This document shows, one piece after another, positions 2-4,199 of a stretch of DNA of 6,706 nucleotides. Every line of letters begins with the position of its first letter. Within the stretch, counting starts at the first letter, position 1. The notes below the pieces were generated by a model. It had not been told where the DNA came from. It saw nothing but the letters and a program-made list of their open reading frames with translations, and did no database searches. Origin of the DNA: Candidatus Helarchaeota ASGARD archaeon Hel_GB_B (GTDB lineage: Archaea > Asgardarchaeota > Lokiarchaeia > Helarchaeales > HEL-GB-B); contig SUPR01000147.1 of NCBI GenBank assembly GCA_005191425.1, positions 1-6,706 of the forward strand, written 5' to 3'. Both the position numbers and the translations under genes were made by a program.

Positions 2-880
2 TGAATAATAGGAATTTCCAAGCATTACAGGTTGTTTTTCATAATATCCAATTTCTCCATTTTTTGATGCACTTCGAGATATATATGGCAATTCCAAGTC
101 TATAAAGTCTACATAGACCCATTCTATAATTATCTCAATGGTGATCCTATCGTCTGATGACGAAGGGTCCTTAATTTCGATCGTCCATAAAGTCCATGAA
201 TAATTTAATTGAAAAAATAGTGCGAACATAAAAAGGAGCCCGACTATTATCAGGAAGCTTATAGTCATTGTTATAATTTTAAAAGCCAATATTATACAAG
301 CAAGCACGAGAATAATGATTTTGACAGCATTTTCGAGGGCTTGTTTGGCGGACTCAGCGAAGGAAGCCAGGAGTTTCAAGCCCCAGTTAGCCAGGAATTG
401 AAATAATTTTACGAACAAGTAGATGGTGGCTAGTATTGGCATTGCTACCAAGATTAAGCCAGTTATTAAAAGGAGCAACCAGACAAACCAGCTATTGGGT
501 TTAGGACCGGTAGGGCCATTTCGGGTTTCTTGTGCGTCGAACGGGACCAATTTTAGTATATCAGAGGCTAGACCTAACTTTTCTACGCTACCCGCTTTAT
601 TGCAGACTTTATATTCATAAACTTCATAATCAGTGGCGTTTTTGAGCAGCAGGTATAGTATTGCCATAGCTTCATCGGCTGTGGTCTGGTTTTTAGAAAT
701 AACGCCTTCAACGTGTTCACTTACAGAATCTTCATTTCTATTTATGCCATAAAAGTCAGCTGCAATTCCCGAAGCAGAATTCTCGCTCAATACGTCCGGT
801 ATCTCTTGGTTTTCAATCATTGCATGTAATTTAGTATTTAAGAATAGGCTAACAGGAATTAAAATTACGTTAATGCCCTT
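2..880 (-). CDS. Partial cassette gene, copy 1: N-truncated conserved module plus variable membrane tip, running off the left edge
   Basis: Hand translation gives a stop-free minus frame from 940 (in-frame TGA at 943-941) to base 2; first ATG at 820. It reads KGINVILIPVSLFLNTKLHAMIENQEIPD...VPFDAQETRNGPTGPKPN...WGLKLLASFAESAKQALENAVKIIILVL...WVYVDFIDLELPY...GYYEKQPVMLGNSYYS. Clear paralog of 2742-4199. Absent from the ORF track, probably because it has no stop in the window. Confidence 0.9.
302..868 (-). repeat. Conserved module, inverted paralogous repeat of 2721-3287
   Basis: 189 codons align without gaps to 2721-3287, 143 identical residues (~76%, hand count), with many synonymous differences. 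Confidence 0.95.
324..369 (-). repeat. 46-bp perfect inverted repeat, arm 1
   Basis: Exact reverse complement of 3220-3265 (TGGCTTCCTTCGCTGAGTCCGCCAAACAAGCCCTCGAAAATGCTGT). Confidence 0.97.
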
Positions 881-1031
881 TACGAATGGTTCAATTGGGT
901 CCTGGATATAAAAAGGATCTTGTATTATTAGGAGATACTCTCACCTATCAAACTAAAATTAACAACCCGTTATCAAATGAAGAGTCTGAAGATATTGAGA
1001 GCGCACCATTTAAACATGAATATATATATAT
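874..1031 (+). pseudogene. Probable upstream fragment of a third variable tip, out of frame with 1016-1672
   Basis: The frame of the 886 ORF reads GYKKDLVLLGDT, resembling GYYEKQPVMLGNS in the copy 1 tip. One extra AT unit at 1020-1031 would fuse it to the 977-1672 frame. The similarity is short. Confidence 0.5.
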
Positions 1032-1672
1032 CTTCGTTTCTTATCGGATTATCAATAACACTCACTACATTTGCCATTATATTTGGTATCTGGGGGCTAA
1101 TATACGACATAAATGATAATTGGGCCAGGTGGTGTATGCTTGTTATAATTCTTACAGCAGTTGCTTTAGTACTAGGGTGTATTTTACCGTTCTTTTCCTA
1201 TAATAAGGAGTTGCTGGAAGCGAATCCACTATTTTTAATAGTAGGAATACTTGTAGGAATCTTTTTAGCTGGCGGAATGGTGAGCCTTGCGTGCTCAGAA
1301 GACGAATCAAAAACTTATTATAAAGGGTCGAAAAAGGCGATCTTTAATTTTATAGTGGCAATTATTGGGCTTATAGCAGTTGTTTTAGATATAAGATGGA
1401 TAAAAAGTACCGTAATTGAGAGCATCATTGCGTTTATCATTCTTGTGTATATACCATTCATTCTGGCGATGCGAGCTATTTATAAAACTGTTAGTAATAC
1501 TGATAAAATTAAGATAGTCGCAAAAATTCTGGCTATTTTAGGATCTATTGGTGTTATAATTGCTTTAATTTGGATTGGATTTATAAATGAAAAGATAGCA
1601 TCTTATAATTTGGTTTATTATTTATTTATAATTTTATTGATAATTCATACAATGGTATTGATTATAATATAA
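1016..1672 (+). CDS. Multi-pass membrane protein (~7 hydrophobic segments by eye), probably the C-terminal TM bundle of a cassette tip
   Basis: ORF 977-1672 with an in-frame ATG at 1016. Weak similarity to the copy 2 C-terminus: PLFLIVGIL/PFLLIGIL, AIFNFIVAIIGL/YILNLIVFLIGF, VVLD/FLLD, IESII/IESSL. Confidence 0.75.
   Translation: MNIYISSFLIGLSITLTTFAIIFGIWGLIYDINDNWARWCMLVIILTAVALVLGCILPFFSYNKELLEANPLFLIVGILVGIFLAGGMVSLACSEDESKTYYKGSKKAIFNFIVAIIGLIAVVLDIRWIKSTVIESIIAFIILVYIPFILAMRAIYKTVSNTDKIKIVAKILAILGSIGVIIALIWIGFINEKIASYNLVYYLFIILLIIHTMVLIII
1020..1031 (+). repeat. (AT)6 dinucleotide tract at the frame junction
   Basis: ATATATATATAT is present in the sequence. Confidence 0.9.
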
Positions 1673-1937: not shown

Positions 1938-2684
1938 ATGAAGATGATGTATGAATTTGCCTCTTTTTTTATTGTAATCTGGTTTTACCTAATGCCAAGT
2001 GTATTATTTTCCGATATGTTGGGTAGAAAAGTCAATTTAACCCCGGTAATTGAGATATTTAGGACAACGTATATAGATTTTTCCCTGATACTTGCAGTCA
2101 TTGTGATGATCAGTCCAGTCGCGGTTATTACTCTAGTTATATGGTGGAATAATAAAAGAGTTAATAAAAATAGAGGTTTTAATAAAGTGAAGGCGAATTA
2201 TGGTCTTGTCAATAACACACATGGGATGTTGATTTGGTTATTTGTAATAGGATTTCCATTAAATTGGGCACAAGCAATTATTTATGTTTCGGCGATTTTT
2301 TTTGTATGGATTTGGGCGGGTGAATGGTACCCGGTCTATAAATTGAACAAAAGATATAGGCTGTTCCTTAAATTAAGATATAAAACGAAGAAAGAATTGA
2401 TTATTGAGATGGAGACTAGTTTTCAGGCATTAATAATAAGTCAGTGGGTTTTTCTGGTAGCTGCTGTCTATAAATTATACCCGACACCATTTCTTTTATT
2501 GTTTGTTGGACAAAAATTTTTGTTTAAACAATTATTCTTCAATAAAGATTATGATGCGATGGAAGATTCAATAGAATTTTATAATAAATGGAAAAAATTA
2601 GGAAATATTGGTACACTTATATTGGGTATTTTAGGTGTGTTGTTGATTATAGCATTATTATTATTAGGATATAATATTTTATAA
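1938..2684 (+). CDS. Multi-pass membrane protein, putative cognate partner (immunity-like) of the upstream tip
   Basis: 248-aa ORF with about 6 hydrophobic segments and basic loops; no recognisable family. The partner role is inferred from position only. Confidence 0.8.
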   Translation: MKMMYEFASFFIVIWFYLMPSVLFSDMLGRKVNLTPVIEIFRTTYIDFSLILAVIVMISPVAVITLVIWWNNKRVNKNRGFNKVKANYGLVNNTHGMLIWLFVIGFPLNWAQAIIYVSAIFFVWIWAGEWYPVYKLNKRYRLFLKLRYKTKKELIIEMETSFQALIISQWVFLVAAVYKLYPTPFLLLFVGQKFLFKQLFFNKDYDAMEDSIEFYNKWKKLGNIGTLILGILGVLLIIALLLLGYNIL

Positions 2685-2711
2685 ATTGAATTTTAGAGTA
2701 ATTATTATTAA

Positions 2712-4199
2712 AAGGAATTAGTAATATTAATTCTGGTCAGCTTGTTCCTAAATACGAAGCTGCACGCTATGCTGGAAAATCAGGAAATACCTGCGGAATT
2801 AGGAGAGGATTCTTGGTCTGGAGTACCTGCGGACTTTTATGGGATGGACAGAGATGAGGAGTCTGTCAGTGAGCACGTGGAAGGTTTAATCGCCAAAAAC
2901 CGTACCACTGCGGATGAAGCGATGGCTATATTACAATTATTATTAGAAAATGCCACAGGACACCAGACTTATGAATATACGGTCTGCAACAAGGTGGGGG
3001 CTATAGAGCGGCTCGAACTCGCATCAGATATATTAAAAATAGTCCCGTTCGATGCCCAAGCAATGCAGAATGGTCCGACTGGAGATAAGCCCAATAGTCC
3101 AAATTTATGGTTCTTTTTGATTATAACGGGGCTAATATTGGTGGTGTCAGCGGTTCTGGCGACCATATATTTGTTCGTAAAGTTGTGGGAATTTTTGGCT
3201 AGATGGGGGTTGAAGCTCTTGGCTTCCTTCGCTGAGTCCGCCAAACAAGCCCTCGAAAATGCTGTTAAAATTATTATTTTAGTTTTATTGCTAATGTCTT
3301 TAGCTTTTGAACTTTTATTTATTGTTATCCTATTTGGTTTATTCTTCATACTTAGTATTTGTACTTTTAATAAAAATCAATATTCAGTATTACTGGTAGA
3401 TTTAACAAAATTTATTATAATAGATAATGTAAATAACCACACTTTTTCGTTAGAATATAAAATTGTATGGAAGTATGATGAAATTTTAGATATGGAACTT
3501 CCAGAATCGAATATTAATATATATATTGATGGGATAGAATTTTCAAAGATTAAAAGATTCGAAATTAGAAATATGACGGGATCAAATATAGAAACCACAT
3601 CAAATTATCAAAAACTTATGGAAGGTATGATAGCAGCAAAAATCATTATATTAACATTTTTGAGTCTTTATATTTTGATGTTTTATGCAGCTTCCCAATA
3701 TATTATGGTAATTCCATTTTTATTAATAGGAATTCTCACCATATTTGAGATAGTAATTACAAATTCAATTACTAAATCAATGTTAATGAATGATGATCAA
3801 TCTTCGGAATACATTTTAAATTTAATTGTATTTTTGATTGGATTTTCCTTAGTATTTTTATTGGATGGCTTTAGCTTTTTGGGTGTATTAATAGGCAAAG
3901 TAACCTTTGATTTATTTAGCTTTATTGAGTCCTCTTTAGAAATTTTAATTAGTTTTTTTCAATCAAGTTTTTCTTTTGATTATTTGAATTTGACTTTTAT
4001 TATATTACATGTAATATCTTTAATACTAATCTTTCTTATAGATCATGTCTTATTAAAATCAAAAACGGGAAAAAATGCTATGGGATATTGTGCAATAATT
4101 TTATGTAATTTAATATTTATGTTTTTTGGTCTAAGATTGTTTATCTATAGTGTTGAATTTTTAGCCGAGTTATGGTTTACTTTATTCTTAATCCAATAA
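2712..4199 (+). CDS. Cassette gene, copy 2: N-truncated conserved module plus variable multi-TM tip
   Basis: ORF 2742-4199; the frame is open from 2712 (TAA at 2709-2711). Coding homology to copy 1 extends upstream of both TTG 2742 and the first ATG. Soluble N-terminal domain, then many TM segments. Confidence 0.9.
   Translation, partial: KELVILILVSLFLNTKLHAMLENQEIPAELGEDSWSGVPADFYGMDRDEESVSEHVEGLIAKNRTTADEAMAILQLLLENATGHQTYEYTVCNKVGAIERLELASDILKIVPFDAQAMQNGPTGDKPNSPNLWFFLIITGLILVVSAVLATIYLFVKLWEFLARWGLKLLASFAESAKQALENAVKIIILVLLLMSLAFELLFIVILFGLFFILSICTFNKNQYSVLLVDLTKFIIIDNVNNHTFSLEYKIVWKYDEILDMELPESNINIYIDGIEFSKIKRFEIRNMTGSNIETTSNYQKLMEGMIAAKIIILTFLSLYILMFYAASQYIMVIPFLLIGILTIFEIVITNSITKSMLMNDDQSSEYILNLIVFLIGFSLVFLLDGFSFLGVLIGKVTFDLFSFIESSLEILISFFQSSFSFDYLNLTFIILHVISLILIFLIDHVLLKSKTGKNAMGYCAIILCNLIFMFFGLRLFIYSVEFLAELWFTLFLIQ
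2721..3287 (+). repeat. Conserved module, paralogous to 302-868 (inverted)
   Basis: Ungapped 189-codon alignment with copy 1, ~76% aa identity by hand count. Confidence 0.95.
3220..3265 (+). repeat. 46-bp perfect inverted repeat, arm 2
   Basis: Exact reverse complement of 324-369; encodes LASFAESAKQALENAV. Confidence 0.97.

Follow-up and report, generated by a model that had tools for sequence, protein, structure and literature searches.

A short junction block and the probable exchange of C-terminal tips in an Asgard archaeal cassette family

C-terminal tip swapping by recombination is well documented in bacterial polymorphic toxins. In archaea, VARTIG is the only module of this kind that we found by full-text searching. 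Here, we analyzed a 6,706-bp contig from a metagenome-assembled genome (MAG) of an Asgard archaeon (the complete contig C55, referred to as the window in the following). It carries two paralogous genes, A and B, which join a similar constant module to unrelated C-terminal tips and share a perfect 46-nt inverted repeat close to the junction between both parts. Close relatives of the window proteins identified in a protein search bear the name Candidatus Helarchaeota; full-text searching turned up no description of the family. Our analysis suggests that, in this Asgard family of polymorphic cassettes, tips are likely exchanged at the 46-nt block by homologous recombination or gene conversion (C-terminal displacement).

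A number of described systems are relevant for comparison. The shufflon of plasmid R64 (Rci/sfx), the G segment of phage Mu (Gin/gix) and phase-variable type I hsdS loci each involve a dedicated recombinase encoded next to the inverting segment; their single constant part lies outside this segment, and both orientations coexist. Neisseria pilE/pilS encodes a bacterial pilin, which varies by RecA-dependent non-reciprocal transfer from many silent 5'-truncated copies and involves an element forming a G-quadruplex (G4). In Salmonella LT2, the main and orphan rhs-CT/rhsI genes recombine over 522 bp shared at 95% identity (PMC3967940), and the same logic applies to the cdiA-CT/cdiI orphans of contact-dependent inhibition (CDI) systems and to the alternative cassettes of Neisseria MafB (PMC4287609). 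VARTIG is a module of the Thermococcales, the variable part of which is an immunoglobulin (Ig) domain with a sorting signal, that is, the hypervariable C-terminal Ig domain of an arCOG07710 protein; according to its authors, other archaea have no counterpart, and recombination within the locus was not seen (PMC8416519). The unannotated family from Helarchaeota, Lokiarchaeota and Sigynarchaeota described below appears to follow the same genetic logic, with a precisely mapped junction and with membrane-spanning tips and membrane partners.

The junction block and its origin in gene B

Genes A and B are divergently transcribed. Over the first 173 codons, they can be aligned without gaps at 74% amino acid (aa) and 70.5% nucleotide (nt) identity; beyond this point, the two proteins are unrelated. 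Gene A, which runs from an ATG at 820 down to position 2, has a full length of 518 aa in the related contigs L026 and L030. The genes and the two arms of the repeat are located as follows:

2-820, minus strand: gene A, with the constant module (~312-820) and the start of tip A (2 to ~311); the contig end cuts the gene
324-369, minus strand: left arm, the junction block in gene A (codons 151-166, LLASFAESAKQALENAV)
2769-4199, plus strand: gene B (476 aa), with the module (2769 to ~3277) and tip B (~3278-4199), the latter with roughly six further transmembrane (TM) segments
3220-3265, plus strand: right arm, the junction block in gene B, a candidate A-type conversion patch within a B-clade module (see below)

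The module consists of a soluble part of ~110 aa followed by TM1, while TM2 straddles the constant/variable junction; according to the TM profile, the tip then adds a W-x-Y..D-x-E-L-P motif as well as another five or six TM segments. The polar linker from TM1 to TM2 is encoded by the block, which stops ~12 nt ahead of the sharp junction.

Over their full 46 nt, positions 324-369 match the reverse complement of 3220-3265 exactly. The two stretches are embedded, as its core, in an imperfect inverted repeat of 128 nt (306-433 / 3156-3283, 84% complementary). A previous sequence-only reading of the window had pointed out this match, including 15 consecutive third codon positions, and our comparison confirmed it: 14 degenerate codons in a row agree between A and B, and codon 151 contributes the fifteenth position with its third base. 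The divergence of synonymous sites elsewhere, also claimed at that time, was found as well. Outside the block, A and B use the same codon in 47 of the 108 degenerate codons for identical residues (43.5%), and the block is the only exact run of at least 12 nt between the two genes. Differences return directly beyond it, with C/T at the 5' edge, then GTC/GTT, ATC/ATT, and CTC/TTA. In this genome assembly, the two arms are the only copies of the 46-mer.

We resampled the synonymous sites while keeping the amino acid pattern, and a run of at least 46 nt occurred in 0 of 20,000 trials (maximum 44, mean 15.4). This rules out protein constraint as the cause of the identity, in agreement with the earlier reading. 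Under the codon usage of the genome, the chance of obtaining 14 identical codons is 10^-4.8. Codon bias is ruled out by this probability and by the use of rare codons in the block (TCC, GCC and CTC account for 7%, 9%, and 4% of their synonyms, and the GC content at third codon positions, GC3, is 0.207 for the genome), while chance is ruled out by the resampling together with the codon-usage probability.

Selection on the nucleotide sequence or the RNA itself, for example if it formed an RNA structure, were a regulatory target or made translation pause, could also keep such a stretch identical, and the presence of rare GC-ending codons at a genome GC3 of 0.21 would be in line with it. But no significant RNA structure was detected for the block (z-scores of -0.5, -0.3, and +0.45), the sequences for the same peptide in relatives show 6-9 synonymous or conservative differences, and the strain contig L026 carries a synonymous T>G exchange inside the left arm (window position 326). 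Moreover, the phylogenetic switch in gene B described below indicates copying rather than convergence. We regard this explanation as extremely unlikely.

The MAG is fragmented (3.54 Mb in 182 contigs, 28% GC, 93.7% complete), and both ends of the window contig lie in repeats, as would be compatible with an assembly artefact such as a collapse or chimera. But the 46-nt block is far shorter than a k-mer or a read, and two other assemblies, the ENA MEGAHIT k141 contig L030 (11,839 bp) and the NCBI MAG contig L031 (4,672 bp), reproduce both arms and their flanks, each with 99.91% identity to the window. Since plain chance is also excluded by the calculations given above, the probability that the identity arose in either of these ways is negligible.

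The origin of the identity is indicated by the relatives of gene B, for which we compared the modules of the B clade (G001:C452, L025, L028, L032 gene 1, and L040). Over the 215 nt that precede the block, 32-38 differences separate B from G001:C452, L025 and L032 gene 1, and 72 separate it from A. Within the block, B and A show 0/46 differences, compared to 6-7/46 between B and the same three clade members (6-9/46 for the clade blocks). In addition, a TCC (Ser) codon of the block is common to A and B, whereas the five B-clade modules have GCT (Ala). We defined informative sites as positions at which A differs from all five B-clade modules and counted the side taken by B. Upstream of the block, B sides with the clade at a ratio of 44:6 and downstream at 6:0, but inside the block it sides with A at 3:0 (Fisher's exact test, block vs upstream: p=0.0036). 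As far as can be read from these sequences, the block of gene B is a mosaic and bears the marks of a short stretch, 46 to ~52 nt long, that gene conversion copied from an A-type donor. The perfect identity between A and B would then be due to an A-lineage patch copied into the module of B, so that conversion between A-type blocks and B would have generated the perfect inverted repeat. The proposal of recent gene conversion, or a nucleotide-level recombination signature, at the constant/variable boundary is hence supported. Short-patch conversion is known in Sulfolobus, and our locus would provide a small natural example from an uncultured archaeon. A literature search on the length of archaeal conversion tracts gave no report.

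Reassortment of tips, modules and blocks in the wider family

If tips are exchanged at the block, its copies should be followed by different tips, a check that the sequence-only reading had already proposed. Indeed, five cassettes from several assemblies contain the exact 46-mer, and the tips behind it are of four kinds: tip A (that of gene A and its copy A' on L029), tip B, the L035 tip, and the L034 tip. The L029 orphan cassette contains a near-copy of tip A and is identical to A over 86 nt. The tip of the L035 orphan cassette is ~66-67% identical to tip B, with exact identity to A over 58 nt. This cassette is located directly downstream of gene A and its partner gene, in a strain with a tip A of 98.7% aa identity (98% nt, window 1-202). 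The orphan cassette on L034, which derives from a more distant MAG, occupies the same position as that on L035, but its tip resembles the one of G001:C452; here, the exact identity to A extends over 67 nt. All three cassettes have a decayed module stub with a stop codon. Together with L032/L033, they retain ~20-90 nt of the module plus the block. On L032/L033, a tip B with 93% nt and 86% aa identity to that of the window is found without a module and behind another block (7/46 mismatches).

Gene callers annotate the orphan cassettes as proteins of 302-326 aa, and a possible TTG or other start is present at G-L-K codons just 5' of the block (L029:3713, L035:2141, L032:5060). Judged from the sequence, the 'silent' orphan cassettes may be expressed as module-less tips.

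In four pairs of loci that are otherwise collinear, the points at which homology is lost are clustered. Gene A and L037 are 94.8% identical over 596 nt up to position +58 relative to the block start (~312 of the window), and L035 and L034 are 90.4% identical over 2,156 nt up to +67. Homology between L029 and L035 ends at +58, and between L029 and L034 at +89. Modules with 88-97% aa identity carry unrelated tips (no or at most 32% similarity), and similar tips (55-86%) are found behind different modules or none. The comparison of these sequences indicates that modules, blocks and tips have been reassorted, with breakpoints just behind the block.

The block itself differs between family members in a graded way, with 0, 1, 2, 6, 6, 6, 7, 7, 8, 9, and 9 mismatches out of 46, and a degenerate 46-mer scan of genome contigs found a same-genus copy only. 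The graded differences suggest that the block is homogenised locally and does not represent a universal conserved site.

Related genomes encode giant PKD-repeat proteins (1,514-4,461 aa) that contain the module close to their C-terminal end and in which PKD and TSP3 repeats are the only recognised domains. A profile search retrieved 308 representative proteins (50% clustering) of 127-5,870 aa. Its named members belong to Helarchaeota, Lokiarchaeota, and Sigynarchaeota and are labelled 'PKD domain-containing' or 'hypothetical'. Each tip is followed by a multi-TM partner gene, and the aa identities of tip and partner co-vary: 86/89% (tip B, L032), 67/57% (tip B, L035), 98.7/95.7%, and 83/80%. 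This would be expected if tip and partner form one cassette unit.

A, B and the partners did not match any family in Pfam, NCBIfam or PADLOC, and a feature search of the ESM Atlas gave no usable match. An AlphaFold2 model of the module (pLDDT 75.6, pTM 0.36) consists of a small alpha/beta domain and a long helix (residues 111-189); an atlas search with this model yielded TM-scores of at most 0.31 and no fold match. GC3 is ~40-70% in the constant part and falls to 10-25% at the tips in four of five profiled members from the Helarchaeota order, most clearly in B and L022, and a sharp step was also noted for L021. The tip of gene A is mixed (20-50%), and the distant L019 giant gene is uniformly low. 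GC-biased conversion or a foreign origin of the constant part are possible causes of this step, which resembles the GC-richer constant core and AT-rich tips of Rhs.

In the MAG of the window, we found no full-length giant gene that carries a module of the A/B type. The module relatives found there are a paralogue on contig C104 (34% identity) and a pseudogene fragment on C137. The former (C104:1-792, L023) is distant and is cut by the contig end just after ..WGLNLLGSFQDVMDAIEAAVK, which is equivalent to the end of the 46-mer. This break fits a heterogeneity of tips in the sampled population that interrupted the assembly. The latter (C137:9111-9295, L024) is a decayed module copy with in-frame stops and 88.6% identity to nt 12-196 of module A.

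Layout of the window, inversion and the proposed exchange

Apart from genes A and B, the window contains remnants of further module and cassette copies:

821-940, minus strand: in-frame remnant of a longer gene 5' of the ATG of gene A (..PFVKGINVILIPVSLFLNTKLHA), matching the pre-module stretch of the giant PKD proteins of relatives
886-1672, plus strand: tip fragment (231-aa open reading frame plus a split start), with 31-34% aa identity to residues 247-477 of tip A (C-terminal TM bundle)
1938-2684, plus strand: multi-TM partner gene (248 aa), with 30-32% aa identity to partner A in L034/L035
2715-2768, plus strand: the same remnant 5' of the ATG of gene B (VILILVSLFLNTKLHA), ended by a stop, matching the pre-module stretch of the giant proteins
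4291-5316, plus strand: multi-TM partner gene of tip B (341 aa), which travels with this tip
5356-5388, plus strand: 33-nt scar of a further module copy (FNAQSMQNGPT), 91% identical to 3048-3080

The in-frame sequence 5' of both ATGs (..VILIPVSLFLNTKLHA) matches the stretch preceding the module in the giant proteins; on this sequence evidence, genes A and B are 5'-truncated copies. The region 886-2684 is a degenerate third cassette, which combines the tip fragment with a homologue of the partner that follows tip A. At 821-940 / 886-1116, the truncated 5' end of gene A (minus strand) and the plus-strand tip fragment meet head to head without a spacer. This junction (~880) is consistent with an old inversion or rearrangement that joined two arrays.

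A crossover between the arms would invert 370-3219 and exchange the tips between the two modules. We agree with this geometry, which had been part of the sequence-only reading. Occasional homologous crossovers of this type would not require a dedicated enzyme: the arms are inverted and offer 46 nt of perfect within 128 nt of 84% identity, recombination has evidently acted on exactly the stretch of the block, and the head-to-head junction would agree with a past inversion. But L030 and L031 span both arms in the orientation of the window and the JGI contig L026, which covers the left arm, confirms the left junction (all of them consensus assemblies, which are blind to rare forms). Chimeric proteins in which either module is joined to the tip of the other gene were not among the matches in a search of 5.8 billion protein clusters, which listed A and B themselves, module-only matches to each other, and tip-only relatives. 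Moreover, an inversion would do no more than trade one module for another that is 74% identical and likewise starts with its own ATG, so that no clear functional gain is apparent. We therefore consider such inversions unlikely.

The sequence-only reading had gone further and compared the arms with a shufflon. In this case, they would be the sites of a dedicated site-specific invertase and act as a programmed switch of the shufflon (Rci/sfx), Gin/gix or hsdS type. As in these switches, an inverted repeat is found within coding sequence at a constant/variable boundary, and the contig is short, so that a recombinase gene could be located elsewhere in the genome. But this interpretation was not supported. 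No tyrosine or serine recombinase was called in the window, the 11.8-kb contig L030 or the other related contigs examined; the only recombinase nearby is a DDE transposase of an insertion sequence (IS). The previous statement that no recombinase is visible in the window has to be modified to this extent: its last 111 nt (6596-6706) code for the N-terminal 37 residues of such a DDE transposase (PF13610 DDE_Tnp_IS240, 3.4e-8), but this is not an invertase. In addition, the geometry is reversed, with both modules and their ATGs inside 370-3219 and both tips outside, and one orientation alone is seen in the two assemblies that span both arms. The block is not kept as a site either, as relatives differ at 2-9/46 positions; it also occurs as direct repeats in orphan cassettes, and its exact identity with A varies between 58 and 86 nt, as expected of homology but not of a fixed core. 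Taken together, a dedicated invertase is very unlikely, and even a striking perfect inverted repeat need not mean a switch.

We rather favor an exchange of tips by homologous recombination or gene conversion, which could proceed as follows. The family comprises giant PKD surface proteins as well as short forms consisting of a module plus a tip. Ordinary homologous recombination or gene conversion would swap cassettes, each made up of a tip and its partner. The 46-mer would be the core of a junction block of 46-86 nt, with which the conservation of the module ends ahead of the variable tip. The upstream crossover would take place in the module or the block, and homology would end ~12-40 nt downstream of the 46-mer. 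The block would hence act as a handle, being the last homology before unrelated tips. In gene B, an A-lineage patch of 46 to ~52 nt would have been copied into a module of the other lineage. The inverted layout would result from two cassette arrays standing head to head and represent a by-product, not a switch. In the L035 layout, the block of A and that of the orphan cassette are direct repeats, and a crossover between them would fuse module A to a new tip, as has been shown for the main and orphan Rhs genes of Salmonella (PMC3967940). The enzyme system would presumably be homologous recombination of the RadA type. The identity of the blocks is probably kept up by repeated conversion, by or for the exchange, and tips and partners may form a conflict or recognition pair.

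Several points weigh against this proposal. No recombinant product of these very copies was observed, and ongoing exchange is deduced from mosaics. Some of the cases in which different tips follow the same block are found between genomes (metagenomes of related strains) and not within one. The phylogenetic-switch test is based on three fully informative block sites, and a patch of 46 nt is short for conversion. A block selected as a handle and one that is merely homogenised as a by-product cannot be told apart. As mentioned above, this genome did not yield a full-length gene of the A/B type, and no toxin or immunity function has been shown for tips or partners.

A stronger version would regard the block as a selected recombination signal of programmed tip switching, in which the block is kept identical between an expressed gene and silent cassettes, allowing cells to change the membrane tip of a surface protein and its partner by conversion, deletion or inversion. 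We consider this unlikely. If true, the prokaryotes most closely related to eukaryotes would possess an archaeal equivalent of antigenic or toxin-cassette variation.

Two further features are located at the ends of the window:

1-133, minus strand: segment of tip A with a second copy on C11, another contig of this MAG, where the shared sequence begins at the W-x-Y..D-x-E-L-P motif
6303-6706, plus strand: start of a multi-copy IS element, 98% identical to L029:1928-2331

Both contig ends can be explained by these repeats: the left one, because the tip A segment is also present on C11, and the right one, because the window ends in the start of a multi-copy IS. On C11, the second copy of the C-terminal part of tip A (G000:C11:9783-10383, 99.2% identical to tip A in L030) stands behind an unrelated sensor-like gene and its upstream sequence is unrelated, and the L034 contig stops at this position as well. 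The tips may hence contain a further recombination junction, at the W-x-Y..D-x-E-L-P motif. In the L030 copy of the IS (2654-4296), the transposase has 450 aa and is IS6/IS1-like, yet it falls under the curated cut-offs. Further IS copies are present at the ends of contigs C155, C109, and C133, where they account for the breaks in the assembly, and the copy on L029 (1928-3300) directly adjoins the orphan cassette. Between the cassette array and the IS, the window encodes a 258-aa protein (5393-6169, minus strand) with a putative N-terminal 3'-5' exonuclease domain of the DEDDh or Rv2179c-like type (Pfam 2.2e-6; PADLOC DEDDh 1.8e-4); the stop codon of this gene is 4 nt away from the module scar.

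Comparison with described systems

The inverted repeat resembles those of the shufflon, the Mu G segment and hsdS, as short inverted repeats are found in coding sequence at the boundary of a constant part and alternative C-terminal parts. But an adjacent recombinase, a single constant part outside and coexisting orientations were all not found here (consensus assemblies). With pilE/pilS, the locus has in common that short conserved blocks beside variable segments provide homology. The role as pilin, the G4-forming element and the many silent copies are features of pilE/pilS, none of which has been shown for our family.

Like VARTIG, the family is archaeal and includes a large surface protein with an Ig-like fold (here PKD), the C-terminus of which is hypervariable via recombination with smaller downstream genes. 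The organisation of both has been likened to polymorphic toxin systems, and the function of both is unknown. The tips described here are membrane-spanning and have no Ig or PKD match, unlike the variable Ig domain of VARTIG, which is confined to the Thermococcales.

The family also corresponds in its logic to Rhs, CDI and MafB. Here as there, a conserved coding region ends at a sharp junction, behind which unrelated C-terminal tips follow, each with a small downstream gene. In all of them, 5'-truncated orphan cassettes keep a piece of the constant region, which is the substrate (in our family, the likely substrate) for a homologous recombination that installs a new tip. In our family, this feature is represented by the stubs on L029, L034, L035, and L032/L033, by the 5'-truncated genes A and B, and by the scar at 5356-5388. 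Differences exist as well. The handle comprises 46-86 nt of exact identity, compared to 522 bp at 95% identity in the Rhs genes of LT2, one pair of copies is inverted, and no main gene of full length with such a module was found in this genome. Moreover, the host belongs to the Asgard archaea, and we found neither YD/Rhs repeats nor a VENN or PxxxxDPxGL motif nor a known secretion system here. The multi-TM tips do not contain a toxin domain recognised by Pfam, NCBIfam or PADLOC, and FHA/VENN and DUF1020 were not matched.

Taken together, the cassette system works like Rhs, CDI and MafB, but it is not a member of these families or of VARTIG. For Asgard archaea, it provides a concrete starting point from which cell-cell conflict or self-recognition can be tested.

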